Shown here: positions 1 through 64,000 of the stretch, in pieces
Layout: every line of letters begins with the position of its first letter
Position numbering within the stretch: the first letter of the stretch is position 1
DNA from: Euglena gracilis
Lineage: Eukaryota
Direction: 5' to 3'
DNA: 64,000 nucleotides
Assembly: GCA_039621445.1 (NCBI GenBank)
Contig: CP154954.1
Span: 1,240,001-1,304,000 of the forward strand
The notes under the pieces: generated by a model
Told to the model about the DNA's origin: nothing
The model's database searches: none
What the model saw: only the letters and a program-made list of their open reading frames with translations
Program-made: the position numbers and the translations under genes

Positions 1-52
1 TTACTTTTTATTTTATGATTTTTGGTTTTTAGTCAGATGATATGATTAATAT

Positions 53-686
53 GTGCGATTCGTTTATTGATTTACTAGTGAAAATTATAAAATATTTTTA
101 ATAATTGTTAATCATTAGTTTAAATTATTGAATTTTAGGAAATTTTTATTTATTAAAATATGTTCAAATATTTAACTAAAATATACGGTTTTAAGTCCAA
201 GTTTTTTTTGATTTAATATTGTTTTTTTTTTGATGCAAGTTAAATTTTAGAATTTTATAAGATTGTTAAGGTAATATTATTTATTAGAATAGTTTTCAAT
301 TTATTATTAAATCTATCATGACATATTTGAAGGTAATTTTTTAATATCAGGAGTTTTTGTTTTAAAATAAATTTTTAAAGTTTTGAATTTTTAAACCTTG
401 ATAGAGTAACTATTTTTATAACTTGAAAAACTTTAAAAAAACGAAGCAATTATTTTTTAATTTTTGGGATAGTTTATAATAATTAATTCTTTTTTGAAAG
501 ATTTCAATGTAATGTTTTGTACTTTTTATATTTTCAATTTAGTAAATTTTACTTTTATTACAAGTATGTATAAAGTTAAATATTTTTACTTTTTACAATA
601 ATGGTTGTTCTTCTTATACTTGAGGAGCTGTATGATTGGCATATCATGTACAGTTTTGTATGAAAGGCTTTTAGTTCTATTCTTTC
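53..686 (+). other. Internal group II intron of a psbD twintron, inserted in domain V of the external intron (external intron ends at 746)
   Basis: Starts GTGCG, has its own domain V (GAGCTGTATGA...TCATGTACAGTTT, ~625-656) and ends CTATTCTTTC like the external intron. Removing it rebuilds a domain V hairpin AGTCAGAT-GATAT-loop-ATATC-AG-ATCTGGTT. Confidence 0.85.
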
Positions 687-746
687 CAGATCTGGTTTAA
701 GGAAAGATTTTTGCTATCTTTTTTAGTCAGAAAAATCTATTCTTTC

Positions 747-3789
<3,043 letters not shown>

Positions 3790-3790
<1 letters not shown>

Positions 3791-6700
3791 GAAAGAAAAA
3801 AACAAAGAAAGAGAGACATTGAAAGGAACAAGAAAAAAAAAAGAAAAAGAAAGAGAAAAAAAAAGAATTGTTGGCAAAAGAAAGGGGCGAAGAGTAAAGA
3901 AAGAGAGCAAAAGGAAAAAGAGGAGGCGGATAAGAAAATCATGAAATTTAAAAAGATTAAAAAAGATTAGGTCTTATTTTTTAATGAATGCAATACATTA
4001 GAAATAAGAAAATTTAATGGAGATAAAAAAAATAATAATTAAGAATAAGTTTTTACATTATGAAAATAAATCAAAGAGAAAAACAGGAAAAAAGAAAAGA
4101 AATAGATGTAAAAATTTTTAGAAGAAAAACAGTTTAAAAAGAGAAAAGACAAGAAGAATAAAAAAGGAAAGAGTTAAAAGGATTGTTTTTAAAGGATAGA
4201 AGAAAAAAAAAAGAAAAGAAAGATGAGTAAGAAAAGAAAGAAAGAAGAAGAAAAAAAGAAAAGAGAAAGAAAAAGAAAAAAGAGTACGAAAGAGAAAAGG
4301 AAAAAAAAGAAGGGTTGTTAAAAAGGTGTAAAAGAGAAAGAGGAGGGAAAAAAAAAAGAAAGAAGAAAAAAAAAGAAAAAAAAAGATTTGATAAAAAAGG
4401 CAAAGAGAAGAAAGGAAACGACGGGGATAAAAAGAGAAAAGGAGAAAGTTAAAAGTGAAGAAGAAAAAAAAGAAGAAAGAGAAGGAAGCGAACAAAAAGA
4501 GAAAAAAAAAAAGAGGTGGAAAGAGGAAAGAAGGAAAATAAAAAGGAAAGAAGGAAAGAAAAGAGGGGAAAAAAAAGAGAAAAAAGGAGACAGAAAAAAA
4601 AAAAAAAAGGAACAGAAGAGAAAAAGAAAGGAGCGAGTTAAAAAAGGATAAAAATAAAGAAAAATAAAAAAGAAAACGAGTAAAAAAGCGAAAAAAGAAA
4701 AAAAAAACAAAAAAAAAGAAAGAAAGAAAAAAGAGTAAAAAGAAAAAAAGGGAAAGAAAAAAAAAAAAAAAAGAAGGGAAAAAAAGAGAAAAAAAAAGAA
4801 AAGAAAAGGAAAAAAAAGAAAAAAAAAAAATGACAAACAAAAAAAAAAAAAAGGAGGAGGAAAAAGTAAAGGGAAGAAAAGGAAAAGAAGGAAAAAAGAG
4901 GAAAAGAAGAAGGGAAAAAAAGAAAAAAAAAAAGAAAAAAAAGGGAGAAAAAAAAAAGAAAAAAGGAAATTGAAAACAAAGAACAAAAGGGAAGGAGTTT
5001 TTAAGTAGACAAGAAGAGAAAGAAAGGAAGAAAAAGATTTAAGAGGAAGAAAAAAATAAAAGAGGAGAAAAGAGAAAAACAAGAGAGAAAGGTAGAAAAA
5101 GAAAAAGAAGGAGAAGAAAAGAGGAAGAACGGGAAAAAAAGGAAAAAGGGTTGAAAAAATAGAAGGAGGGGACAAAAGAAGAGAAAAGGGAAGAAAGAAG
5201 AAGGAAGAGGAGAGTTGAAAAGAAGAAAAAAAGAGAGTAAAAAAAAGAGAAAAAGGAAGAAGGAAATAGAAAAAAGAGAGGATAATTTTATTTAAAGGAG
5301 GAGGAAAAGAGGAGAGAAGAAAGAAAAAAAAAAGAGAGAAAAAAGGAAGGAGAGGAAACAAAAGAGGGGAAACAGGGGGAAAAAAAAAGAAAGAAAAAGG
5401 GGCGGAAGAGGAAAAGAAAGAAAAGAGAAGAGAAAAAAAAAAGAAAAGAGAAGAGAAAAGGGGGAAAAAGAGGGAGAAAGAGAGAGGGGAAAGGGGAGAG
5501 AGGAACGAGAAAACGAGGGGGAAAGAAGGAGAAAAAAGGAAGAGGGGAAAGAAAGAGGGAAAAAAAGAAAAAGGGAAGAAGAGAGAAAGAAGGAAAAGAG
5601 AAAGGGGGGGGGAGAGAAAAAAGAAGAAAAAAAAAAAGAGGGAGGGGAAAAAAGAAAGAGAAAAGAGGAAAGAAGGAGGGAAGAAAAAAAGAGGAAGGGA
5701 AAAGAGGGGAGGAAGAGAAAAGAAGGAAGAAAGGGAGGGGGGAGAAGAAAAAGAAAAGAGGGAGGAGGAAGGAGAGAAGAGGGAAAAAGGAAAGAAGAAA
5801 AGGGAAAGGGAGAAAAGAGAAAAAAGGGAAAGAGAAGAGAAAGGAAAGAAAAGAGGAGAAAGGGGAAAAAAGGGAGAGGGAAGAAAAAAGGAGGAAGAAA
5901 GGGGGAAAAGAAAGAAGGGGAGAGAAAAGAAAAGGGAAGAGGAAGAAGGAAAAGAGAAGGGAGGGGGGAGGAAGAAAAAGGGAAAAAGAAGGGAGGGGAG
6001 AAAGGAGGGAAAAAGAGAGGAGAAAGGAAGGGGAGAGGGGAGAAAAAGGAGGAAAGGAAAAAGAAAGAAAAGAAGGAAAAAAAAAAAAAAAGAGAAAAAA
6101 GGAGAGGAAGGGGGAGGGGAAAAGAAAGAAGAGAAAAGAAAAGGAGAAAAATAAGAGGAAGAAGAGAAAGAGGAAAAGGAAAAAAAAGACAGAAAAAGGG
6201 GAGGGAAAGAGAAAGAAGAGGAGAGAAAGAAAGAGAGGAAAGAAAGAAAAAGAAGAGGAGGAGGAAGAAAAAAAGTAACGAGAGAGGAAGGAAGAGAGGG
6301 AAAAAAAGAAGAGAAAAAGAAGAGGAGAAAAAAGACGAGGAAGGGTGAGGAAAGGAGAAGAAAAAAAGAAAAAAGGGAGAAAAAAAGAGAAAAAAGGAGA
6401 AAAAAAGAAAGTAAGAAAAAGAGAGAGAAAAAAGAGAAAGAGAAAAGGGGGGAAGAAGGAAGGAAAAGAGAGAGGGGAAAGAAGAAAAGGAAGGAGGGGA
6501 GAGGGGGAAAAAGAGGGAAGAAGAAAAAGAGGGGGGAGAGGAAAAAGAAAGGAGGAGAAAGGAAAGAAGAAGAAGGGGAAAAAGAGAAAAGAAAAAGAAG
6601 GAAAGAAGAAAGGAAGGGGGGGGAAAAGGGAAAAGGGAGGAGGAAGAACAGAAAGAGGAGAAAAAAGAAAAAGAGGGAAAGAAGAGAAAGAAAAAAAAAG

Positions 6701-7815
6701 AGAAGGAAAGAGGAGGAAGGGGGGAGGAAAGAAGAAAGCAGAAGGAAGGGGGAAAGAGGAAAGGGAGAGAAGAAAAGGAAAAGGAAGGAGAAGAGAGGAA
6801 GCGGAGGAAGAAAGAAAAGGGAGAGAAAAGAAGAAAAAAAAGAGAGAAGAAGGGAGGAGGGGGAAAAAAGAGGAAAGAGGGAAAAAAAAAAAAAAAGGAA
6901 AGAAGGAAAAGAGAAAAAAGAGAAAGAAAGGAAGAAAGGGAAGGAAAAAGGAAAGGAGAAGGGGTAAAGAGAAGAGAAGAAAGGAAGAGAAGGAAAGAAG
7001 GGAAAAAAAGGAAAGAAGAGGGAAAGAAAAAGGGGAAAAAAGAGAGAAAAAGAAAAGAAGGGAAGAGGGAAAAAAGAGGGGAGGGGAGAGAGAGGAAAGA
7101 GAAAAGGGAAAAGGAGGAAAGAGAAAAAGGAAAAAGAGAAAAGAGAGAAAGAAGAGGAAAAAAGGGGAGGAGGAGAAAGAAAGGAAAAGAAGAAGAAAAG
7201 AAAGAGAGGAAAGGAGAAAAAAAGAAAGGGAAGAGAAAAAGGAAAAGAGGGAGAAAAGGAAAGAAGAAGAGAAGGAAAAGAAGAGAAAGAGAGAAAAGAG
7301 AAAGAAACAGAAAAGAAAGAGAGAGAGAAAGGAGAGTGAGGAAAGAGAGAAGAAGAAAGAGAAGGAGAAAAGAAAAAAAAAAAAGAAAAGAGGAGGGGAA
7401 AAGAGGAAAAGAGAGAGAAAAGAAGAAAGAGAGGAAAAGGAAAAAGAAGAAAAGAAGAAGAGGGGGAAGAAAGAGGGAGAGAGGAGGAGGGGGAGGAGAG
7501 AAGAAAAGAAAAGGGAAAGGAAAGAGAAGAAAAGAAGAAAGTGGAGAGGAGAGGAAAGGGGAGAGAAAAGAAATAAAAGAAAGAGAGGGGGGAAAAGAAG
7601 AAAAGAAGGGGGAAAGAGGAAAGAGGAGAAAGAGCAAAAGAGAAGAGGAAATAGAGGGGAGAAGGAAGAAAGAAAGAAAAGGAGAGAAAGGAGGGAGGGA
7701 GAGAGAAGATAGAAGAGGAGAAGAAGAAGAGAGAAAAGGAAAAAGGAGAGAAAAGAAAAGAAGAGGAAAAAGGAGGAAAAGAAAAAAGAAGAGCGGGAAA
7801 AAAAGAGAGAAAGGA
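3790..7815. repeat. Aperiodic polypurine (A/G) low-complexity tract, likely sequencing/assembly artefact
   Basis: About 4 kb almost free of C/T on +, no repeat unit, G content rising rightwards, small AT-rich plastid-like scraps inside (~3940-4120, ~5280). Confidence 0.75.
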
Positions 7816-7930: not shown

Positions 7931-10135
7931 CACATATCCTGCATTGCTATATCCACTACCTTGCCCCACGCTGGCAGGGCAGAACGGGAATCGGCCAAAC
8001 AGCCAGGGTGGTGGGTGGGGTGCCCCCTGCGTGGTGGGTGGGGGGAGTCGACCACCCCCCCCACCACCTCTTCCCGTTGTTCTGGGGGCACCAATTTTCG
8101 GACCCGAAGAAAATTTCCCAGCGGCCTCGCCTTCGGCGCCGGGTGTTTTTTTGACCCATTTTGGGGCCCATACAGGGGGTCCCCCCCCCCAAAATCCCCA
8201 AAACCCCGTTTTTTCACACTTTTTCTCAAAATTTTCTTTGATTTTCTTTGATTTTCTCTTTTGATTTTGAGAGGTTTTTGAAGCAATAATTCTGTTTAAA
8301 ATCCAAAAAAAATTCAAAGAGAAAAAACGTTAGTAAATTTTGGTTGTGCCAGGATTTTTTTTGACCTTCGCTTTTTTCACCCCCCTCCTAAAAACTGCCA
8401 GTTTTTAACCCTGAGATCCTTGAGACTTTTTGTGAAAAAAATGTGGTTTTCCATAAAAAAAAAATGAACCCATGCATTTGGGTTCATTTTTCCAAAAGTT
8501 TTTCAAAAAAATTTCCCGGGCAAATCCCCCATTTACCCAAAATTGGTGAAAATGCTGTAGTGGGTGGGGGGGGGTCGACCCACCCCCCCACCAGGCCTTC
8601 CCGTTCTGCCCTGTCCGCAGGAGTTCCTTGTTCTTTGCCTGCCAGGGGATGTGTACGTGCGGGGGCCGGAGGAGTCAGAGGAGTATTTCAGCCTCTGCCA
8701 CCACCTCGTCTCCCGGGGACTGGCCCGAGTGGTCGGCCGGCACCCTTGACGGAGTTTGGCAGAAGGAGACACAGGACTTCATACAGGCAAGTGCACGCAA
8801 GCGCGCGCGCACACCCACACCCACACATGCACACACACACACACACACACACACATGCACACACACACACATAAACACACGCACATGCACCCACACTCTA
8901 ATTCGTGGTTACACATGGTTACACCCTCACAACGTACCGCCACCCCCCCCCTTGTCTGTGCACCACCCTTTGTGTAAGCACCACCCACCCGGTTACCGGC
9001 CTCCCACAGCCTCTACATTTTTCAGCAGTAACGTCAGAACCATTTGGACCTCAGAGTCGCCCACGAGACTGAGTCCCACCGATGTCCTCTCAGGGAGGGA
9101 GGCTGCAGGCACCTTCAGGATGGAGGTGGATGGGTGGGTGCCGACCCTCCCTACCCCCCCCTCACCAGTGCAAACCAAAATCGGATGCAAGCAATACACT
9201 TGGGAACCCCCACGCTCAAAACACGCAAAGCACAGTCGCGTGGCCGGCAAACCCCGGGCCCCAGCCTGGAGCAGCTGGCCGCCGCGGAGGAGGCGGCGGA
9301 GCGGGAGGGGCGGGGCTACTGGCAGGCCGTGAAGGCGGTGCCCGTTGCCCGGCTGAAGGGCAAGGTGTGGCGGCGGAGGCCGGGGGGCGGGGATCCGGGG
9401 GGCGGGATGGCGGGTATTTTGTGCGCGACAGGTCAGGCAGAGGAAAGCTTTGAAGCCCAGGTTGTTTTTTGATAACAGGTTTTTTTTCTATGACAAATGG
9501 ATATGGGCACGCGCGCACACACACGCACACGCGCGCGCACACACACACATGCACGCACGCATGCACGCACGCACGCACAGACGCACACAATGCAGACAAC
9601 ACACACACACACATGCACGCACGCATGCACGCACGCACGCACGCACGCACGCACAAGACACACACGATGCAGACAACACGCACACACACACCTACACACA
9701 CACGGCGCCCACAGGTTACGTCAGTCTTCTCCGGGTTCACTTTCCGGGTGGAAGTGGAGAGCGTCGTCAATCAGAGCGAAGCAGAGAGGGGGATGCCCTT
9801 GGCAACGGTTCTTGGCTCAGATTGTCATCCCTGTAAGCAGCTTTCGAGAGTAAGTTCGGATTTTTGGAAGTCCAATGTGCAGAAGCGGTTATGCCACCCT
9901 GATTTCGAATTTTTCCACAGAAAAAGAAAAGAAGACCGTGGTTTATCCTACTGGCCCACCCACCCTCCCACACACACACACACACACACGCACACACGCA
10001 CACACACACACGCACACGCACACGCACACACACGCACACACGCACACGCACACGCACACACACACGCACGCGCGCACACACACGCACACACACACGCACG
10101 CGCGCACACGCACACACACACACGCGCGCACACGC

Positions 10136-10216
<81 letters not shown>

Positions 10217-13200
10217 CACAGCACACACACAGTCCCACACTGACCCCGAAGTCCTGACCAGCGTCCCTCTTGGGCCGCCAGCCTGGGTGAGGGATCGGCT
10301 CGACCACCACCGCCGAGCCATCCGCCTGCACCTCGCGGAGGTGCTCGCGCCGCAGCTGAACCAGGCCTTGGGAATCTCTTCAAACTGCAATTTCAGCGTC
10401 TCACATCAGTGGAGAATGCAGTCATGGCAGAGGCAATCCTGGCAAAGCCAGGATTGCCTCTGCCATGACGAACTCCTGCGTCTTTTTGGGAATGTGGTGC
10501 CCCCCCCCCCTAGTCGTACGACCACCCCTCATTTATGACCACCCCCCGGTCACAGGTTGCAGGTCATGGGGGTGTTATGACCACCCCCCCCCGGTCACAG
10601 GTTGCAGGTTGCGAAAAATTTAACCCCCAAAAATAAGTCCCCCCCCCTCTGGCCGGTCCGAGCAAAAATCCATGAAATGGACCCCCCCAAAATAAGGTCC
10701 CCTCTGCCGGCGCGAAGCGCCGGATTTTTGAAAAATGGGACATTTTGGGGGGGGTAAATCTGCCATTTTGGGACAGTTTTCACACACTTCTACGACCGCC
10801 CCCTCATCTATGACCACCCCCCGGTCACAGGTTGCAGGTTATGGGGGTGTTATGACCACCCCCCCCCCGGTCACAGGTTGCAGGAACCCGGTCATACGAC
10901 TAGGGGGGGGGGGGTAGAGAAAAGGTGGGAGGGTGTCGGGGACGTGCATTGCTGTACGCTCTTGCATCAGTGGTCCCGTTGTTTTTCTGTTTTCTTTGTG
11001 GCCAATGGAAGGGGTATGATGCAAGAAATCCGGAAAAAAATTCGGCATTTTTGAGGGTCCCGCCCCCCCCCAGTTTGTCCGGACTGACAGGAGGTGGGGT
11101 CGAAGTAGGGTGGGAGTCCCCTGAGGCTTCCACACACCAAATTCTATCACGAAGCCAGAAATGAGGCGATGGAGTTCCTGTTCAATAAAACCGTGGAGGT
11201 CCACATCATCGCGTATTACGCCGGTGTGTGTCAGTGGGCTGCCCCGGTGTCATGGGTCCATGGGCAACCTCCCGCTTGAAAGCTGACGGCTTCAGGGTCG
11301 GCGAACAGGATCCAACGTGGAGTGTTAAGCCAACTTGCAGGCTAACGTATGTGTGTGCACGCAAGGCGGAGAATGCCTCTCTTTCGTTTTATTTTTCTTA
11401 GGAGTAAACAAAACAGAAGCAATTTTTAACAAAATAATACATATTATTTAATAGTGTTTTTTGCCGGTTTTCACGGAATATTTTCTAGTCCATACCTTTG
11501 CCCAGGCAGAAGATCGGTCATTGTGGCTTTCTTTGTTTCGAAATTGGGGAATTGTTTAGCACGCCCCTGAACGGCTAGGGTCACAGATGTCGGGTTTTTT
11601 CCTGGTCCGGCCATCTGCCATTCTTTGGAGGCGTGGCCACCTCCCGGAACAGTCCTCCTGCGGTGCCACAACGATGCCCGTGTGAAGGTTTTTGGAACCG
11701 ACATGTGAGAAATCATTCGACAAAGTGCACATAAAAAGCATAAGTTGTATTTTCCAGAAAAGATGATAACGTTTTCATTTATAAAACACGCTGAAAATTT
11801 CCCCAAATTGTTTGCATCCATTTATTTTGAAATATAACAAATATTAATTGCATATATTATTGTTTTTTTATCAAATATAACAGGATCTGCAAATAAAAAA
11901 AAACTCCTCTGATTACCAGCAGGCAGAACTTGGCCAATTCCAGGGGGGAGGTACACTCAGATACCCACGTCTTTCGGCAGAGGGGGTCTAAAAATGCCTG
12001 GAAATTCTGCCCAGACATTGTGAAAGCTGAAAGCCCAGAAAAAGGCCATTTGTTGGGGGATTTTAACCCAGAATCCCCCTTTGCCAACCCCTCCCACACA
12101 GGATTTGAGAAATGAAGATGGGGGGAGTTGGAGGGGCGCCCCATCTTTGCCAGTGCTTCCGCGATCGCAACAGCGATGCATTCCTGGAACTGTGGGCCCC
12201 TGACCATGTTTTCCAACCAAATGAAGAGCCCTTCCCCCCTCCAACCCCCCTTCCCCCATGGACGAGTTGATTCTTTTTATTTGTGTTGCACCTGTTCGAA
12301 GGGTGGCTGGCTGGAAGAAGGATGCTGACTTCGACTAGAACTGTGTCCGACTGGGCTGACAAAATCGAAACTGACGAAAAAAATGCCCAACAGACTGCCA
12401 TGTATGCAAAAGGTCCATTTCGTGACCCAAAGCAAGCTCTTGCCGGCCCATTTCCGGCCATTTTCGCCCATTTATGCATCCGTCCTCTGCCCTGGACCCC
12501 CGGTCCATATTGCCTGCCACCAGCTTAGTTCGCTCACGTTGAGGAGTACCAATCGCAGTAGAAAAAAAGGTGATGTTCCGCCCATTCCCTTCAAAAAGTC
12601 ACTTGGCAAGGGTGTGTCGTTTTGGAGCAGGGGCTGGTTGCCTGGAGCGCCACGGCACAGCCTGTGCAGTTCCTCAAAGAGGCTGCCATTGTCTGCTGCC
12701 ATATATCAACACACGCCCGAACACGCACACACACAAACACACACAAACACACGCATGCACGCATGCACACACGCACTCACGCACAATACACACACAACAC
12801 GCACGCACAACACACGCACGCACGCACAGACACAACACACACACACACACACACACATGCACACACACACACACACACCACACACACACACACACCACAC
12901 ACGCACATCGTCTGACATTCTTGGCGAGGCAATATGGAATTTGGCGCACCCACTGGCAATTTCGCCCCCCCCCCTACACACTGCTGGCCCTGGACACCCC
13001 CCTTCTGTCCCCCCCAACTGTCACCCCCTTTCCCCGTTTTTTGAGAAAATTTCATTCAATGTTTTCCCCTGAAAAAAAAGTTCCTAAGCTGTGAACTTTT
13101 TTTTGAAATGTGTGCGAAATTCTCAGCTGTGCCGGGGGGGGGGGGCTCCCAGAGTTGTTTCGTGGCATGCAGCACAGGTGGCTACCCAAGTAAGCAAGTA

Positions 13201-41600: not shown

Positions 41601-44600
41601 GATTGGTAACGTGCAATTTCCTCTCTCTCTCTCCCCCCCCCCTCTCTCTCTGTCTGTCTTTCTTCCAAGACTCCAAGACTATCATCAAGACCAAGTCTTG
41701 ATGGTTTTCCAAAGCTTGCCCCGATGGGAGAGGTTGAAACAAAAACCATCATCTGGAAAATAATTCTGTGTACGTTTTTTTTTCCTGAAAATGTGGAATG
41801 TTTCTTTCCCAGACCGGTTGCTGTTTTACCTTTGCACGTTTTGATTATTTATATTTTTTCCCTGGTTCTTTGACAAGGTGCAATGCAAATGCATTTTTTA
41901 GTCGACCTCTCCCTCACACCAGTGGCCATTGCGTATTTGCTCTCCCCACGATCTGGAGCTCAAGCTGAGCGAACTTTTTCGAAAATAGGCCATATCTTAA
42001 CATCTGACGGTCTGAACATGAGTGATGATACTCTGCAAGCCTTAGTATTCATTTACCTGAACAAAGGATTGTTTGAAATCACTGGTTGAAACCCGATTCA
42101 TGGGCAACGCTTCGTGGATCCAACGTCTTTTTGTGCCCTTAGTTGCTTTGCTCTGATTCCCCCTTATTTGTGTGGGCGGGACCCCACCTCCAGTGTTCAA
42201 ATCCCGACAAATCCCGACAAATCCCAACAAATCCCGACAACACCACCAAAATCCCATGTGTCTGGAGGTGCTTGCCCGGGGGGTCCTTAAGAAATCCCCT
42301 GAATGAAAGAGGTTGCCATTTTTGCCCATGTTTGCCCTTTCTTGGCCATGTCTTTCCACGTTTTGGTCGTTTTTGCTGCTTTTGACTTTTCCCCCATCAT
42401 TTCTGCTCTTTGGTGCTGAGAAATGTATGTTTCTGTCAAAGAAGATGATAATTGAGTCTATTGTTTGTCGAAAAGTGTTGGCCATGTCGGACGGCAGTCT
42501 GAGCACCCTCACCGGCGTTTCATTAATGCATGCGTGTAGGTTTGGATGAGTTTCATAATTTGCTGGAAATGCTGATTTTCCGGCTGCTCAGCCCCCCCCC
42601 CCCACCTCATGTCTAATGAACCCCCCTGGCCAATGAACAGGGGGTGCCCGGTCCGTCCAGTTCATCATCTTTTGCAGCAATGCCATGCAAAATGCCCATG
42701 CAGCCCAAGCCCAAGTGAATCACCCCTGTCTTCATCGGGCTTGGGGGGGTACCGCACGCTGCTTCATTCCCTGCAGCACCCGCCAGGCTTCTTTTTTTAA
42801 TTTGGATGACCCCCAGGGAGGGCTGGACCCGTCCTGGACCGGAGCCCCCTCGTATGGGTTTTGCGCAAGGCGCCGGAGATTTTTTTGGAAATGGCCTCAG
42901 AAGGCCTGGATTTTTTGGCGGGGTGCAAGCACCTTCGGCGATGCAGGGCGATGCGGGGCGATACGGGGATTTTTTGGGATTTTGGATGGCCGAAGTGGGG
43001 TCTTTGGCCAAATTGGACGTTGGAAGGGAATATTGATTTGCATTTTATTTGTCATTTCCTCAGCAAACATGTCAAAAATCTCATGCATGTGTCTGCTCTG
43101 TGGCGGAATGGGAAATTTGGGCCCATACTGCTGGGTTTTCGGACATATCAGAAACGGCTCCTCTTGAAGATGCAGAGCAACAACCTGGTGCGTTCATGGT
43201 ATTGTAATGGGTTTTCATTCCTCATATCTCCAGGAAAGGTGTGTTGCACACTGTGTGCAGTGTATTTGGTGGCATCTGCTTCAAACATCAAGCAGCATTG
43301 TGTCGGCAGAACATTGCCGGGTGGTGTCTTCCTCGAAAGCCCGCATGCAAAGAAGCTACATGCCAGAAGTGTAACTGTTGCTGCTCCGATCACCGATCCT
43401 GTTCCTCTGGTTCCACCCAATATCATCATCAATGTATGTTGGTTTTTTTTAAAATCACCATCATTTTAACATTTGTTGGATTCTGAAGTCTATGTGGAGA
43501 AGGAAGAACCCAAACCAAAAAAAGCTAAAGGCAACCAATTTGGAGGTTTTTTGTGCGCAATATTCAAAGCAAGGAGAGTTCTTGAAGGATTTGGTTCTTG
43601 CCTTCACATCGTGCAACATCCCACTTGAAAAGTTGAAAGTTGGTGATGGTGGTGAAAAGATTTTGTTGCGACAATTTATTGAAAAGTACGTGAAGGTTGA
43701 TGGAGTCACGCGTCACATTCCCCAGCCCATCAATTTGAGGGGCAATTATTTGAAGAAGATAAGGGAGGATGGGGTGAAGAACTTGCGGGAGATCATTTCA
43801 TCATTTCATCTGGAAATTATTATGTGGTGTTGGAAAGCGATGAGACGGATGACCTGAGGCCTCAAAATTCTTACATTGTCACCATTGATGTCTCACTCAT
43901 TCGAAAGGTTGACACTCAGAATGATTCTGAGGTGCGCAAATTTCATATTCAATTTGAATTCCCTGAGAAAGTCAACAATGAAACCCTCAGCACCACCATC
44001 GACAAGGTGTGCATCAACTTCTTTAAAGTAAATGGTTAAGGTGCTGAATTTTGCAGGCTTTGCGTCACGTTCACATCCAGCCTTCTGATGTCATCTATTT
44101 TGAATTCATGCCCCACTGCAATGGGTTGTCCATTTACCAGCTGAATTTGGTTCTCCAGAAGGACTCTGGGGGAGTTTTCGATGTGTTGGGTGAAATCAAC
44201 AGGCATGTGATCCCGTAGGAGACACACCTCGTATCTGTTTTTTTCTAGGATTAAAAACACTCTTGAAGATCAAGCAAGGTTGTTGAACTGGCCTTCGGAG
44301 GTGGAGAACAAGATGAAAGCAATTAGTGCGAACACAGCCATTCAGTGTCAGAAGCATTTCAAGAACGCGTGCGAGGTGTGGGTGAGGTGGATTAGGCAAT
44401 TTGTTGGTCAAGACAGTCAAGGGGCCAGCAATCAACAGGGCAAAAGCTTTGGTCTCAACCAGGGCAGTCATTATGTGCTTCTTTCATTTGACAAATTCCT
44501 TTTCGAGCATTCTCGACATATTTTGTTTGCAACAGTGGAAAAGGTGCTCGAGTCACACATGTGAGGTTGGAAGGCCAAAAAAGTGCAGGTAATCGTTGGG

Positions 44601-46758
44601 AGGTGGTATTGGGGGTAGTTAGGGGTTAGGGGATTAGGGGACTAATTGCATTGCATTGTAGTAGAATATGGTTCCAAGGACCGCCCTTGTCTCGTTTGAC
44701 CCAAGCGGTTTGCAAACTGCCAAAGTCCTTCGTCGTCCATGAAGGAGGCGTTACCCATGGTGGACATTTCTGATTTTGAACGCTACCTCTGCCTCCCTGC
44801 CCAGTCTCCACCCCTGACCACCACCCAAGGGCGAGTCAATTGGTGGAAGCCACGCATTGCAGAGTTTCCAAATTTGGCTCCCCTTGCCATAGCATTCTAA
44901 TTGGCTCCACGATCTTCTTGCCAGGCCGAGCAAATATTTTCGCTGCTTGACCACCTCGGCTATGATGCTTTGTTTGGGGGATCCCCCTATCTCAAAAGGA
45001 AAAGGAAAAGTCATTGGGGATTTTCTAAAAAGCCAGCGGGGAGGGGGTCGAGCCTGCTGGCTGGTGAAAGGTGTTGTGTTGGCTGGAACCCCCACCCGGT
45101 AAGATGGTGCTGGTCGCTACATTGGTCAAAGTTGGCCACAACTTTGTGGATGTCATTTGGCCAAACTGATCAAATAAATGGCCATTTACCTCCCCCCCCC
45201 CCAAGCCCAATGAACGCCCCCAATGAACAGGGGGTGTTCGGACCGTCTAGATTGTCACCATATACTTTTTTTGCGTCGTCAAGGAAATATTCCTTTGTTG
45301 CTGTTGTGAGGATGCCAGTGATTCTGATTCAGGTCACGGTGTGGATTCCAGTCAGGCTTCCGGATTTGTGGGGGGTCGACCCCCCCCCACCCCCTGCATG
45401 GTGGGTGGGGGGTCGACCCCCTCTTCCCTTATTTCCGCCAATTTTTGGACCCGAAAAAAATTTTCCGACGCCTTCCGCGCTGGGTGTTTTTTTTTTGACC
45501 CATTTTGGGACCCATATGGGGGACCCCCAAAAACCACCCAAACCCCCATTTTTTTCACACCTTCCAAATATTCAATGTTTTCTCAAAATTTGATTTTGAG
45601 AGTTTTTTGAAGCAAAACATGCCATTGAAAGTCCAAAAAAATTCAAACAAAAAAAATGTCAGTAAAATTTGATTCTGCCAAAGAAAGAAATTTTTTTTCT
45701 GGCCAACATCCCCGTTTTCCCGAAATCGGTGAAAATGCTGTGGTGGGTGGGGGGGGGGGTCGACCCCCCCACCAGGCCTTCCCGTTCTGCCCTGGCGTGC
45801 ACTGTTTATGCACGTTTCAAGGCTGCGCTGAGAAGGTGACAGAATTAGTGAACACCCATGTCCAATGAACGCCCCCCGTTCGGACCGTCTAGATTGTCAC
45901 CTTAGTGTTCATTGGGCTTGGGGGGGGGAGGTACTGTTTTTGGGCTTGCCCCTTCCTATGGAAGCATCGTGGCCTTCCCATCCAAACGGATGACCGTTTG
46001 AATCTGTCTAATGACACATTTCAATCTCTGATGTTTGCGTACATCAACCATCACCTTTTCAACGTTTCCCCGTGAACCAAGGTCCCTCGCCGTTGCCATC
46101 CTTGGGGTTTGCGTGTTGCACAAGTGGCACGAACCAACTGTTCTCACACTAAAAGCATTTCGTGATTTTAGTGTTCATGTGACTTCCCAATGGGCAATTT
46201 TGGTCTTCGATTATAGGGCACCATTGGATGGCTCTAGGGCGATGCCGGGCGATGCGGGGCCCAAAGGGGTGGGTGACCGAAGGTGCTTGACAGGGTGTCA
46301 CGCCGGGCTGGGTGAGGGGGCAGGGTTTTTTGATTTTTCCTTGGGCCCCAGAGGTCGGTAAAAACCCCGCCAGATGCGGTTGTTTGGTTTCGGTGCGGAG
46401 CGCCGGAACATTTCTTTCCCCCAAAGTTCCCCAAAAGTGGGTACCGCAGACCCCCCACCCAGTCCTAAAAAAGTCCCTGTCGGGGGGCCCCCCAAAGGGG
46501 CTAAAACAGACACTGCTGCCCACCTGCCGCCCCCCCCCCCTCCACGCCGTCCACCTCCCCCAGCTGTGCCAGGCGCTGCGGGAGGCGGAGGACCGCCACC
46601 GGGAGGCGGACCAGGCGTTCGCGGCGGCCGCTGCCGACTCCGAGGAGCGAAAGGCGGCGAAGCGGGTAGTGGACGAGGCCCGGGCCGCCCTGGACCAGGC
46701 GAAGCGCGGCGGCTACCGGGCGCGGCAGAGCCTGTTCCAGGGCAGCCCGGACACCCCC

Positions 46759-55403: not shown

Positions 55404-58400
55404 CTATGGCCCACCGTCAATTTTAAGTTCGGACATGATGTCCATTTTCACTTTTTTCTCACGACAATACTTTACAAACTCTCCACTGAATCTGTGGATG
55501 AAATTTCCAGCCGGTTCCCAGGTTTCCTCCCCGTCTTCATATCCGACCCACTTTGTTAAAAATTCCCACTTTCCATCTTTTCCTTTCCGATGCCTCAAGA
55601 TTTTTTCCACCTCCCACTCATCAGGTAATGCCTCTTCTTCTTTTTCGGTTCGTTTATAATAAAAAAGAGGCACCCCCTTACCTTCAACTTGGGGTTCCCG
55701 ATACTCCTTCAAAAAACTCCTATGAGCTTTTGTCTCCACCCCAGATTTCATCTCAATTACATAACTCCGTTCCCCTTCTCTACCCTTCACGACCCCAGGT
55801 CCCACCCACCTAGAGTCAAGCTTCTCACCCGACCCCTCGGGTCTCCTATACCAAACCGTCGTCCCCACCTTTAGGGGTTCCATTTCTTTCCTCCCCTTAT
55901 TTATCCTTGCCACCTCCTCCTCATGCTTTTTGTTGAGTATCCTAACCACCCTCCCATCAATGTCTTGCATCCTATGGAAAAACTCCACCGAATCCTCACA
56001 TTCTTTGGGTGGTTGGTAGGGTACCCCTGCTAATGGTCTTTCCCTTCCAGTCACAATTTCATATGGGCTCAATCCGCTTTCCCCCTTTACGTCGTGAATT
56101 CGGTCCAAAACTTGGGGTAAAGCTTCAACCCAATTAATTTTTTCCTCCACGTACAATTTTCTCAACACCTCCATTACTTGTTGTCCGGCTCTCTCGACCC
56201 TCCCGTTTGCTTGGTGGTGGTATGCTTGGGAATATGCTTGCCTAATCCCCAAAAGTGCACACATGTTTTTCCACCAAGTGCTTGTGAAATGGCTCCCTTG
56301 GTCACTCGAAATGACCGAGGGAACCCCAAAAGGCCTCCACTGATTTTTCACCATCTCCTTAGCCAACTTGGCACCGGTTAACCCCTTGTCCTTGCATGCA
56401 ACCCCCACAATCCATCCCGAATGCCTATCCACACACAAGGCTAGGGTGTCATACTCCCCCCCATCGTGTAAAACCCTTGGCATTCGAAACAAATCGATGG
56501 CAACACTTGTCATTAGTGCAGGGGGTATGGGTGTGGACTCGATGGGTCCTTTCAAACTCTCCCCCCTCACACTCGCTTGGCATGTGGAACAATTTTTGCT
56601 GCAATTTTGGTTGAGTTGCTTTGCAGCCTTTTCATCAGCCCAAACAAAACGGATTGCCATGTGTTTCCAAACTTTTTCAGGGCCAACGTGCCCCAAAAAC
56701 TCGTGAATTTCTTGAATCACCAAGTGTTGAAAACTTTCAGGCACACACAACTTTTCTTCAAAAAACAATTGACCATTTAGCACTTTGAAGCCCTTTGGCC
56801 AAATTGAATCGCCTTTGGTAGCTACCCATTTTTCTTTCCATGTGGGGCATTGGGAATATGCTTCCCCCCAATCACGCTCCCATACGGGCTTAATATCCTT
56901 AGGGGTCGTACTTGGCAGGGCGTCCCCCACTTCCATACGAGTGTCCCCCCTCGAACTTTCAGCCGTCTCCGGGACAGGGGTCGTCTGCCCCACCCCACTT
57001 TCTCATCCCAAAAATGAACTCGTTTTCTTTTTTTCCTGGGCCCTTGTGAGTGGGTGTCCACAGGGGTATCTTCTCCTCCTGGGTCTCTCCCACCCTAGGT
57101 TCCCCTCCTTGTGCACTCTCCTTTTTCCTCCTGAGGTGTTACGTTTTTGCCACTACGGGTTGTCACCCCCCGTATCCAGGCATTACGTAAATTGGGCTGG
57201 TTTTTGATTCTTATCAGCAAACACTGTTTTTCCTCTTCTTTTTCTTCCCAGACAAAATTTTCCATTTCATCCTTGTCTTCGGCTGACCCGTGCTTACTTA
57301 TATCCCTTAGGGCCTGTGAAGCTGGGTATGCCCACCGACTAAGGATATCGGCTATGGTGTTTTCTTTACCCGGGATATATCCCACCGTCAAATCATACTT
57401 GGAGAAAATTTGGTGCCATCTCGCCCTCCTCCCAACCGGACCACTGGGGGTGTCTAGGACTTCCCTTGTCCAAGACTCCAAACTTTGGTGGTCGGTTAAA
57501 ACCAAAACGGGTTGCAATCCAATCCAACTTTCCCATTTTTGTAGTGCCAAAATTATGGCGTACGTCTCCAACTCCCTGGGGGTCCATTTTCTTTGCCCCT
57601 CGGTCAATTTTCGAGACATAAAAGCCACTGGCACAGTTTTTTTCTCAATCACATCCTGGGCTGTGGGTCTTCCTCCCCCCTCCTTCATTTGCTCTAACGT
57701 TGCCCCCACGGCGTACCCACTGGCATCAACCCTTAGCACAAAGGGTTTATCTGGGTCTACCCGTTGCAACATTAGGCCCGAACACAACCTTTTTTTCAGC
57801 TCCTCAAAAGCTTTTAAATCCTCCCCATCAAATTCCACAGGTTTTCGACTTCCTTTCTTTCCCACCTCCCTGGGGACTTTCAATTTGTCTTGCAACCGGG
57901 CAGCTACTTCCGCATACATGTGAATGTATGCATTGTAATAATTTGTGAATCCCAAAAAGGCTCTCAAAGCCGTAATTGTTTTTGGAACCTCCCACTTTTC
58001 GATCGCTCGTAACTTACCCGGTGCAGGCCTCCTAGTCCCGTTTCCTAAAATCTGTCCACAAAATTCGACCTCCTCCACAAAAAGTTTGGCTTTGAATTCA
58101 TCAGCCACCAAAAGTTCTGTTTTCAGCACCTCCAACACCCTCCTCAAATCTTTTTCGTGTGCCCCCACCAGATCCTCCCCTTCCCCGACCGTTGTCCCCA
58201 CCAGTATGTCATCTATGTACCCTGTGGCGATATCCCTTACTGGTGTCAAACGGTCATCGATCATTTGCTGAAATTGCTGGGGGGCATTTGTCAAACCCAT
58301 TACGTTCACCCTCCACTGAAAAATGCCTTTGGGGGTAAAACAACACGTTATGGGTCGACTTTCTGGGTGTAAAGGTTGTTGGTGAAAAGCTTGCTTCAAA

Positions 58401-59450
58401 TCGATGATCGAAAACATTTGGTTTGCACCATGTTTGACCAAAATGTCTTCAATTTTGGGTAGGGGGTAGTTGCATCGCCTTGTTTGGCTGTTTGGCCCCC
58501 TGAGGTCCACCACCCCCCTCCAAGGAAAATCGTTGGATTTTTTTGGAACTGGAAAAGTCTGGGACAGCCATTCTGAATTTTTGGCTGTGGCTGGCTCAAT
58601 GTATTTTTTGTCGAGCCAGTCTTGTGATTTTTTCAAGTGCCTCTTTCCTCTCACCGTGCATGAAAAAAGGCTTCTGTCTGGTTGGCTTTGCCCCCTCCTT
58701 CAAAGGTATGTATGCATAACCATATTGTCCTCTTTCGGGGGGGTCTGGAAATGGCGATGACCGAAATACCGTCCCCCGGTAATCTTCCAAAACTTGTTCC
58801 CTCAACTTGACTACCCGTTCCTCCTCTTTTTTGTCCTCCCCCTCCCTTGCAATTATCATTCGGTTGATAACTTGCACTGGGGGGTCACTTCCCTCCAAAT
58901 TTGTGGCAACCTCGCCTAGGTTGTCATCACTCAAAAATTGCAATTCATGGTCAACCCCTTCCAATGGCAAACAAAGACCAAGTTTTTGCAACCCAAACGA
59001 AGACCCGTCCGCCACCGTCACATTGTCCACTGAAAATTTTGTGTCATCCCTGAATTTTTGCGGACCCCTCCGTCTTTCAACACCCCGCAGAAAAATCAGG
59101 TCGGGGCTGTCTTTCACCAACGCCTTGTGGTGTGGAAAAATTCCCAGTTTTGCTTCTGCCAACCATGGATAAGAAAGAATAGCATCAACTTTGATATTTG
59201 CCTCATAAAATTCAACCTCATATTCCACCCTCTCAATTTCCCTTTCCTCATTCCAATTTTGTTGTAGGATCATTTTCACCTTTGCACATCTGCTCCCCCC
59301 CGCCAAAGTTTGCCCATTGGCAGTTTCAAACCTTAACGGGTCCTTAGCAGGATACATTAGGTGGTCCCCTATCAACCCTTGTCGAATGAGGTTTGCTTCA
59401 GCCCCCGTGTCAATCAAAATTCTGGCCGTTTTTTCCTCCCCATTTGCCAA
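55404..59450 (-). CDS. pol: Gypsy pol in three frames: protease (58596-59450), RT-RNase H (57095-58654), integrase-chromodomain (55404-56993)
   Basis: ILIDTGAEANLI; IDLKQAFHQ, VMGLTNAP, YIDDIL; VDAS, ELE, TDH, ADILSR; HHCC finger, IDL, SDQGSHF, QANGRVER; WEVEKILRHR..FLTKWVGY..ETWEP. Confidence 0.93.
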
Positions 59451-60217
59451 CCTAATCTGGGTTTTAACAGAAGTTGTCTGTTCCTCCCCCGAGTTTTTTG
59501 CTCCTCCCCGAGAAACTTGTTTGTTACAGTATAATTTTTACTATTTTTTTTTTGAAAAAAGGGTTAACTTAAAGTTTTATGTTTTTGTTTTAGGATATTA
59601 TAATTTGAATCAAAAATTTAATAAAAATTTCTAAGTACTATTTTAATCTAAGTTTAAATATTGATTAAAAATAATTGGAAATACATAATATTTTTTATAT
59701 ATTTTAATTTTTATTAAATTAAATGTTATTTCTTAAAAGAATCAATATTTAAAATTACCTGTAAGTTTCAAAAGAAAATAAAAATTTTTATTTTTGTTAC
59801 GAGTTATAAAGATCGCTTATCTAATTTTAGATAATTTTAGTTTTGACAAAAGCTGTGTATATGTAGTAATATTTTTTCAGTTTGCGAATAAAGTATTATA
59901 ATAAAGTTATACTTTAATTCATTTTAAATAATTGTAGTTGTGTTTTTCTAAGTTGTAGCTTCTCTGAATTAATTTTTTAAGATATAATAATTTGAATATC
60001 ATTTCTTTTATATTTTTACAAAATTAAAAAATAATATTTAGGATTCTATTAAACGGTTTTATTAAGGTAGGAAAAAATTCAATAAAATTCTTATTTTAAT
60101 TGCGATTTGTTGTATTTGTTAATATGGAATTTTAACTGGTATTCGTTTTTAAGAATTATAAAGCAAAATGATTATCTATATCTTGTTTTGTTTTTAAGGG
60201 AGCTTGCTTACCTGTAC

Positions 60218-61088
60218 GAGGAAAGATTGGAGATTCAAGCGATTGCTGACGATGTTAGTGCGATTTGGTTTGTATTATTTTTCAATTCTAGATTATGATT
60301 ATTTATTTACAAAAATCTTAATGAATAAATGCTTTAGTTTATAAATATTTAGTCTTAATTTTAAGATAATTAATTGTTTTTATTAATAAATTTTTTTTTT
60401 ACATTTTAATTTGTTTTATAAAATTTTTTATTTTTTAAATTATATATACTTTTTTTTTTTGAAAAAGGGTTACTTAAGTTTTAATGTTTTTTTGATTTGA
60501 ATTTTATAGATCTTGTGGTAAAATTTATGAAAAAATATGATAATATTAGTACTTTAAAAAGTTCTAAATTATTTAAAATATATATGTTTTTTAATTATTT
60601 AATGTTATTTTATTTTTTTAAATATTTATTGAATGTAAAAATTTTATTTGTTGTTTTATAATACTAATTTAAATTTTTATAATTCAAAAGCTTTTTAAAA
60701 TTTATATAAAGTATATAAAATATTTTTTTTTTAATAATAATTTTTTTTAAAAAGCTTTTGAATTATTTGATTAGTTATTTTTCATCTTGTATTACAAAAA
60801 ATATTTAGGATTCTAAAACGGTTTTATTAAGGTAATATGTTTTATAAACATTTTATTGTTTTGGTGGAATTTTAACTGGTATTCGTTTTAAGAATTATAA
60901 AGCAAAATGGTTTTAATATCTTTTTTTTTAAGGGAGCTTGCTTACCTGTACGAGGAAAGATTGGAGATTCAAGCTTTTTTTGTTTTTATTTTTATTTTTT
61001 TTATTTTTTATGATTATTTATTTTTCTTATGAATAAATGCTTTAGTTTATAAATATTTAGTCTTTTTTAAGATAATTTTTTTTTTTTG

Positions 61089-61120
<32 letters not shown>

Positions 61121-61245
61121 TACTTTTTTATTTTTTTTTTTTTTTTTTTTTGATAAAATTTTTTTAAATATTTTTTTTGTTTTTTAAAATATATATATTT
61201 TTTAATTATTTAATGTTTTTTTATTTTTTTAAATATTTTTTTTTT

Positions 61246-61290
<45 letters not shown>

Positions 61291-61894
61291 TTTTTTTTTT
61301 TTTTTTTATAAAAAAACTTTTTTTTGCAATTTTTTTTAATTTTTAGAAATTTTTTTTTTTTTTTAAATATGTTTTTTTTTTTTTTATTGGCACTGGTTTT
61401 TTTTTTTTTTTTTATTATCGTCCAACTGTTACAGAAGCTTTTCTTTCTGTTAAATATATTATGAATGAAGTTAATTTCGGGTGGCTTATTCGTTCAATTC
61501 ATCGTTGGTCCGCTAGTATGATGGTTTTAATGATGATATTACATGTTTGCCGAGTTTATTTAACTGGTGGGTTTAAAAAACCTAGAGAGTTAACTTGGGT
61601 TACGGGTATAATTTTGGCAATTTTAACTGTTTCTTTTGGTGTGTTACAGGTTATTCTTTACCTTGGGATCAAGTTGGTTATTGGGCAGTTAAAATTGTAA
61701 CAGGTGTTCCCGAAGCTATTCCATTAATTGGAAATTTTATTGTTGAGTTATTGAGAGGAAGTGTTAGTGTGGGACAGTCTACTTTAACTCGTTTTTATAG
61801 TTTACATACATTTGTTTTACCTTTGTTAACAGCTACTTTTATGTTAGGACATTTTTTAATGATACGTAAACAAGGCATTTCTGGACCTTTATAA
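60218..61894 (+). CDS. petB: Cytochrome b6, damaged as assembled; exon 60218-60257 and last exon ~61410-61894
   Basis: [13 protein letters not shown] followed by a GTGCG intron, then [48 protein letters not shown]. There is an extra GT at ~61640 (frameshift), and the start of the last exon is replaced by poly-T. Confidence 0.93.
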
Positions 61895-61961
61895 AAATTC
61901 TTTGTGTTTATGATTTTTACGATGTATTTCTTAATTATAAGGAACCCTTGAGCCTTGTTTA

Positions 61962-64000
<2,039 letters not shown>

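Follow-up and report, generated by a model that had tools for sequence, protein, structure and literature searches.

A stem-bounded insert in a degenerate hAT-like transposase gene of Euglena gracilis, a candidate nonconventional-type intron

Does a transposase gene of Euglena gracilis carry an intron of the nonconventional euglenid type, or has it been interrupted by another transposon? The question is raised by a 1,025-nt insert in a 64,000-nt stretch of the E. gracilis genome (GenBank assembly GCA_039621445.1, contig CP154954.1, positions 1,240,001 to 1,304,000 of the forward strand), which we call the window and in whose coordinates all positions are given. The reading frame of a hAT-like transposase gene on the plus strand breaks off at 44954 and resumes at 45980. 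An annotation made earlier from the letters alone (the sequence-only reading) had taken the intervening segment for a spliced intron carried by an active transposase. Our preferred explanation, to which we hold tentatively, is that the insert is a transposon-derived intron of the nonconventional type, which would be carried by several copies of the family and removed from RNA.

The insert, its stem and the published splicing rules

The insert was delimited from the sequence, by scripted removal, by folding and by stem statistics. Its parts are as follows.

44955-45979, plus strand: insert, 1,025 nt
44955-44957, plus strand: spacer CTC
44958-44971, plus strand: 5' arm
45961-45974, plus strand: 3' arm
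45975-45979, plus strand: spacer TTCCC
~45187-45935, no strand assigned: repeat X, a high-copy repeat nested in the insert, with 22-nt perfect inverted ends
~45370-45770, no strand assigned: repeat Y, inside X, with inverted ends of the GGGGGGTCGACCCCCC type

On the left side, the exon ends in ...GAC CAC and is followed by CTC and GGCTATGATGCTTT (44955-44971). On the right side, GAAGCATCGTGGCC and TTCCC (45961-45979) are followed by the exon, which begins with ATC CAA ACG. The arms, which span 1,017 nt from end to end, are complementary at 11 of 14 positions as DNA and at all 14 as plus-strand RNA, with three U.G pairs; the 14/14 stem between spacers of 3 and 5 nt described by the sequence-only reading thus holds at the RNA level. 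All three mismatches of the arms fall as U.G on the sense strand, which has a chance of one in eight if they are transitions, and the duplex is more stable on the plus strand (-25.1 kcal/mol) than on the minus strand (-14.2). The stem is also part of the minimum-energy structure computed for the insert as a whole. Among random site pairs of the window taken in the same 3+5 register, stems of at least 14 pairs were found in 27 of 2,000,000, so the stem of the insert is not a product of chance. It is real, be it a transposon inverted repeat, an intron stem or both. No further copies of the arms were found within the 64-kb window, and metagenome contigs scanned with a 21-mer of the insert gave 0 matches.

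The borders of the insert read CT...CC, with no GT/C-AG, and the triplets at its ends are GGC and GCC, as already recorded. The 8-nt flanks, ACCACCTC and TTCCCATC, are identical at four of eight positions, also in agreement with the earlier count, and have at most 1 nt in common at the borders. From this poor match beside an intact stem the sequence-only reading had argued for an intron. The count is correct; the argument is weak, as the arms themselves match at only 11/14 as DNA and chance alone would yield a 4/8 match in roughly one case in nine (our own binomial estimate). Regarded as a plain MITE (a miniature transposable element bearing inverted repeats) with an 8-bp duplication, the insert has terminal inverted repeats (11/14 as DNA) and lacks a matching target-site duplication (4/8). 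A Helitron-like insertion, which leaves no duplication, was also considered and dropped, because the ends do not fit such an element.

The register is harder to fix. Since 1,017 + 8 = 1,025, a transposon with an 8-bp target duplication would restore the frame as well as an intron with 3+5 spacers. Hybrid flanks with 4-5 or 6-8 of their eight letters from the left side encode DHIQ or DHLQ, either of which suits the GHIL of an uninterrupted paralogue present in the window (see below), so the protein alignment alone cannot decide the register. The 3+5 register is supported by contig ends in a public run whose RNA kind is guessed (X15, see below). Another register, which uses CGG at 44957-44959, was abandoned because no CCG or CTG partner is found at the 3' end.

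Nonconventional introns make up 71.8% of the introns of E. agilis (PMC12501133). Knock-ins into the GSL2 gene of E. gracilis gave there the code 5'-N3CDG/CH'GN5-6^R, with ^ marking the junction to the exon: splicing is lost when CAG or CTG is altered at a single position, it requires spacers of 3 nt on the 5' side and of 5 to 6 nt on the 3' side, and it needs a stem behind the triplets. Of the annotated nonconventional introns, 61.2% fit this code and 38.8% (E. agilis) do not. In the older description (PMC4770533) the conserved feature is pairing between +4..+6 and -8..-6; CAG/CTG occurs in 33 of 55 sequences and is lacking in 22, a purine comes first in the downstream exon in 55/55, and a purine comes first in the intron in 51/55.

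In the insert, +4, +5 and +6 pair with -6, -7 and -8 (G-C, G-C, C-G), and 11 more pairs follow, three of them U.G. The spacers CTC (3 nt) and TTCCC (5 nt) and the purine A at 45980, at the start of the downstream exon, are as the rules demand, and a pyrimidine ends both the upstream exon and the insert, as described in PMC4770533. A scan of the window for a conserved host gene with a textbook CAG/CTG intron, meant as a positive control, found none. A window-wide scan for stem-bounded inserts with leading triplets was swamped by simple repeats and uninformative.

Most of the length of the insert comes from nested repeats. Repeat X is flanked by TAC on both sides (45187-45189 and 45933-45935), and repeat Y is related to window 8023-8613. 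The insert is thus composite, with a core of ~280 nt (without X) enlarged by X, which itself holds Y. We also noted, at 42593-42745, a shorter repeat related to X, close upstream of the hAT copy.

The host hAT-like copy and its family

The following features belong to the host copy, apart from the last, which is the paralogue.

43007-46201, plus strand: hAT-like element copy, candidate approximate extent, flanked by a 7/8 direct repeat
43230-44021, plus strand: N-terminal transposase-like part, recognised by tblastn of the relatives P0008, P0010, P0014, P0019 and others and by a profile, with a Cys/His zinc-finger-like stretch (43230-43448), an N-domain (43510-43794) and a DETDD block (43800-44021)
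44101-44560, plus strand: gene middle without detectable likeness to the relatives (tblastn, 10-relative profile)
44561-44725, plus strand: predicted GT...AG intron of 165 nt, frame-keeping (GTGAGG at 44561, AG at 44724-44725)
44726-44954, plus strand: exon, first half of the dimerisation domain (Pfam PF05699; residues 375-440 of the relative P0029 match 44733-44930)
45980-46075, plus strand: exon, second half of the dimerisation domain, with a TGA stop at 46073-46075
41874-42089, plus strand: uninterrupted paralogue, a 71-aa open reading frame (ORF), C-terminal fragment only (Pfam, alignment)

The assignment to hAT comes from several sources. Pfam Dimer_Tnp_hAT (PF05699) matches the left exon with E 1.1e-4 (profile positions 21-57 of 84) and the paralogue ORF with E 1.6e-4 (34-81 of 84). 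The scores, 22.4 and 21.8 bits against a cut-off of 21.4, are borderline, but they come from two copies and from complementary pieces of the domain. When 44955-45979 was removed by script, 58 residues aligned to the paralogue without a gap across the junction. Both the split of the dimerisation domain and the gapless match, claimed from the letters alone, are thereby borne out. The paralogue is ~50% identical and probably belongs to a different hAT family; tblastx of its region against the hAT copy detected no other common part.

A full-library search with the ORF at 43701-44039 retrieved 32 proteins at E <=0.001, among them short ORFs with 45-62% identity, taken from assemblies of Logan, ENA and JGI. 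In tblastn, these relatives match the zinc-finger-like stretch, the N-domain, the DETDD block and the C-terminal exon of the window copy. The predicted model of the longest relative, P0029, has a mean pLDDT of 54.8, and its nine best matches in PDB are all chains of the Hermes transposase, although weak (E 1.7e-4 to 1.5e-3, TM ~0.2). For an RNase-H-like catalytic core with an inserted helical domain, as in Hermes, Pfam gave only DUF659 (E 0.076), and a PDB sequence search with P0029 and the profile of the relatives gave nothing useful. Protein searches with the C-terminal exon, with or without read-through into the insert, returned 0 matches in three length ranges. An Rfam search also gave 0 matches. 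One metagenome contig was the sole match to an exon 20-mer; it had no blastn match and three weak tblastx matches elsewhere in the window, and was set aside as unrelated. We accept the family as hAT-like and its window member as a degenerate copy.

The candidate target-site duplication of the host, GGTCTTTG (42999-43006) and GGTCTTCG (46202-46209), is identical at seven of eight positions, one more than the six reported before. As terminal inverted repeats, the ends of the host element show rough complementarity only. The arms of the insert do not resemble these ends, and it was therefore not derived from its host element. In a deep public DNA run (X1), possibly the source of the window itself and so not independent, multi-copy depth spans ~43050-46200, compared with ~36 on the unique flanks.

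The window copy is dead. An in-frame TAA (44898-44900) lies 19 codons upstream of the insert. A perfect 8-bp tandem duplication of ATCATTTC, at 43792-43799 and 43800-43807, breaks the frame; a family contig of X1 (contig 4) has eight gaps across 43614-43915, and the duplication is hence private to the window copy. In size and form, the duplication of ATCATTTC (43792-43807) resembles the excision footprint of an element with an 8-bp target duplication. The middle catalytic block is lost. The 10-relative profile is matched in the window at positions 3-82, 96-170 and 467-520, and the HDSAPYM...CWAHL...RTKW blocks of the relatives (profile ~182-466) were not found in this copy. Colinearity with the family contigs ends at 44100, beyond which X1 contig 5 has 144 and X15 contig 11 has 58 unplaced letters. 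The bin 44555-44691, over the predicted GT...AG intron, has a depth of 0.03 in X15 vs 419.3 in X1.

Two observations concern the relatives themselves. Six of them (P0007, P0008, P0010, P0014, P0015 and P0021) have 15-20 variable hydrophobic residues between 'DGV' and 'K.L..II', which are absent from the window copy; this stretch, whose position is conserved, may be a short intron read through in ORFs derived from DNA. In P0029, hAT likeness is lost over residues 441-476, right after ...RSACQEE and eight residues before the insert site of the window, and the sequence there could be another intervening sequence or a frameshift.

Sequencing reads and competing explanations

The search for public runs had a best match holding 0.36 of the sampled words, with no RNA run among the matches listed. 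Besides X1 and X15, we used X21 and X22, which are true RNA and of which ~5% of each was read. The read-mapping output comprises 176 joints and 823 loose ends, 15 and 24 of which are listed; 135 rows of differences are unlisted.

In X1, the unique flanks have a depth of ~36 and no differences from the window. The contigs over the hAT exons are 3-9% different from the window and have depths of 190-480, which puts the family at roughly 5-13 copies. The unique left part of the insert is also multi-copy, with a depth of 343.7 over 44966-45102 and 237.1 over 45142-45146. The sole contig over 44932-44950 (depth 386.5) continues for 36 letters past 44950 and is therefore unbroken at 44954, and on the other side contig 7, with a depth of 452.9 and 15 differences over 164 nt, covers the last six letters of the insert, back to 45974. 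A joint from 44954 to 45980 is absent among the 15 of 176 joints listed, which go down to a depth of 144.

X15 gives another picture. Its contig 13, with the same three variants as the X1 contig, ends at 44954 (44953/44954), and its contig 16 begins exactly at 45980. The unique part of the insert has a depth of 0 over 44966-45102; of the 13 other hAT bins, 12 have cover. Three holes placed at random in the 15 bins would take in both of the predicted non-exon bins in ~3% of cases (our own calculation), and two contig ends would coincide with both predicted borders by chance in well under 1% (our own rough estimate). The borders 44954/44955 and 45979/45980 are real discontinuities in this probable RNA run, while the DNA contigs pass them, as an intron predicts. 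This pattern hints at removal of the insert from RNA. It does not prove it, because no joined record is listed, rare forms are lost when contigs are built, the X15 contigs could come from a few insert-free copies, and a shared insert could spread non-autonomously.

In the history that we propose, a MITE-like element of ~280 nt with 14-nt imperfect inverted ends would have inserted into the last exon of a gene for a hAT-like transposase. It would have been tolerated as a nonconventional-type intron, since its ends match the euglenid layout (3 nt, stem, stem, 5 nt, exon purine), and several copies of the roughly ten-copy family would carry it. In the plus-strand RNA, the stem would bring 44954 and 45980 together, and excision would restore ...GAC CAC^ATC CAA.... 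In the window copy the insert would later have grown to 1,025 nt through X and Y, and the gene would have decayed (stop, 8-bp duplication, internal loss), so that no function is expected here.

Several observations weigh against this history. The triplets GGC/GCC fail CDG/CH'G, no register within 1 nt provides a CH'G at the 3' end, and the insert begins with C (44955), not with a purine. The active transposase assumed by the sequence-only reading is not supported, as the window copy has a stop, a frameshift and an internal loss. No record joining 44954 to 45980 is present among the reads and contigs listed, and in the ~5% samples of X21 and X22 the hAT exons have a depth of 0, save three partly placed reads near 44718. 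The coding bin 43185-43321 is also empty in X15, so holes occur at random at such depth. The differences listed over all X1 contigs number two in 44955-45186 vs seven in 44692-44954, which hints mildly at a younger, independent repeat family and is not significant (p ~0.2, our own Fisher estimate). The spliced form and the empty DNA form may both sit among the unlisted joints, and copies that share the insert could owe it to a non-autonomous element mobilised in trans.

Despite failing the triplet code, the insert does follow the older pairing-based description. The code itself leaves room for GGC/GCC, because double compensatory changes at triplet positions 1 and 3 are absent from the tests in the part of PMC12501133 available to us. 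The spliced-intron claim as first made is thus backed by the geometry and the X15 contig ends, and opposed by the failed triplet code, the dead copy and the want of a junction record among those listed. The CAC^ATC junction, which the sequence-only reading had proposed to look for in transcripts, is likewise not joined by any listed record, even though X15 contigs end at both its sides.

Rather unlikely, in our view, is a shared transposon insertion that is not spliced. A disrupted hAT copy would have multiplied in trans or by segmental duplication, and a few insert-free copies would be seen in X15. The sum 1,017 + 8 = 1,025 suits an 8-bp target duplication, the unique part of the insert is multi-copy in X1, X15 covers exons and not the insert, the triplets fail the tested splicing code, and the window copy is without its catalytic middle. 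One empty copy (depth ~36) could moreover hide in X1, as contig building drops rare variants. The flanks, however, match at 4/8 although the family copies differ by ~3-9%, and a duplication that young should be near-perfect. The contig ends of X15 at both borders would require two forms, yet the depth on the insert is 0, and the empty-site joint is absent among the X1 joints listed.

We also consider unlikely a private insertion after the death of the gene, in which an independent MITE family of ~7-10 copies entered a dead hAT copy and the other copies are empty at the site. The window copy is indeed dead, the paralogue is empty, no other copies of the arms are found in the window, and, against their respective contigs, the left part of the insert has two differences in 232 nt compared with seven in 263 nt of the adjacent exon. 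The DNA run speaks against a private event: the X1 exon contig (depth 386.5) is unbroken at 44954 and no joint of such depth is listed, and X1 contig 7 (depth 452.9) includes the last six letters of the insert. Besides, the target duplication of a recent insertion should be perfect, and at most 1 nt is common at the borders. Very improbable, finally, is a family intron of different sequence at the same codon elsewhere, of which the insert is a diverged or replaced version: both borders coincide with ends of X15 contigs, and beyond 44954 the X1 contig has 32 letters not shown to match the window, but multi-copy contigs at least 90% alike cover 44966-45190.

Repeat X can be followed in the runs on its own. 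Its depth in X1 ranges from 1e5 to 1.5e6. From its right end (45926), 109 reads of X21 and 231 of X22 run into one common flank, and from its left end (45193) 28 and 54 reads, respectively, likewise enter flank. The same flank of X is also present in X15. Repeat X is expressed somewhere in the genome.

Known systems, the wider window and meaning

The likeness to euglenid nonconventional introns (Milanowski 2014, 2016, PMC3935182, PMC4770533; Nomura 2025, PMC12501133) lies in the non-GT/AG borders, the ends paired from +4/-6, the spacers of 3 and 5 nt, the purine of the next exon and the long stem behind the triplets. The length is inside the range of such introns, dozens to thousands of nt (PMC11282704), which by the same review are released as circles. 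Unlike them, the insert has GGC/GCC and C as its first base, and it sits in the transposase gene of a dead copy. With introners and MITE-type transposon-derived introns (PMC11282704) it has in common the inverted ends, the small non-coding core, the multiple copies and a frame that is restored when the element and a few flank bases are removed. It differs from introners in that a clear target duplication is missing (4/8) and its splicing would be non-spliceosomal.

Among hAT transposases, Hermes and Ac resemble the family in the C-terminal dimerisation domain, with the predicted fold of P0029 nearest to Hermes and a candidate 8-bp duplication of the host; unlike them, the window copy has no middle catalytic block, its frame is shifted, and it contains a stop codon. 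Transposase genes commonly have introns, as Ac does. The link of transposition to host splicing, drawn earlier from this locus, would apply to any transposase gene with an intron. Giroux is said to have described in 1994 how maize Ds, a hAT element, is spliced out as a de novo intron. In that case an inverted-repeat element in an exon is reportedly tolerated through RNA processing, which is what we propose for the insert; the spliceosome uses GT/AG sites in or near Ds, in contrast to the arrangement here, and the arms of the insert are unlike the ends of the host hAT.

The window has further features. A tract of ~3.3 kb at 4500-7800 is almost pure purine (A/G) on the plus strand, with a GC skew of ~0.9 and an AT skew of ~0.87, and is built of loosely repeated AG-rich units. 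Both ends of the window (1-4500 and 60000-64000) are very AT-rich, with GC ~0.18-0.25 vs ~0.5 between them; giant-virus insertions have reportedly been described in E. gracilis (PMC12455990). A (CA)n / (TG)n microsatellite of ~130 units lies at 9969-10231. On the minus strand, 55407-59537 holds the pol region of a Ty3/gypsy-type retrotransposon with long open frames for an aspartic protease (weak match), reverse transcriptase, RNase H, integrase and a chromodomain.

That nonconventional introns arose from MITEs has been put forward in print as a hypothesis. In the accessible parts of the literature on these introns, MITE-like elements are proposed, with no transposon superfamily and no autonomous partner named; the word 'hAT' has 0 occurrences in PMC12501133 and PMC11282704. 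Literature searches on Euglena with hAT, transposase and nonconventional introns brought up no transposase gene reported to have an intron of this kind.

A joint reading, which we regard as improbable, would make the euglenid nonconventional introns hAT-type MITEs, with the 3+5 register corresponding to the 8-bp hAT duplication, and would have a hAT family carry such an intron in its own transposase gene. CAG...CTG would then be the terminal triplets usual for hAT elements. If the register is the duplication, splicing would erase the element together with exactly one duplicate. On that joint reading, the family would need, to express its transposase, the machinery by which its relatives are neutralised. 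A GGC/GCC intron would on the same reading show that this machinery reads the pairing and not the letters CAG/CTG.

If the insert is not spliced, it is an ordinary nested-transposon scar in a dead element. For the origin of the nonconventional introns of Euglena, an insert with inverted ends and exact 3+5 geometry in the transposase gene of a family that makes 8-bp duplications would offer a concrete test case.

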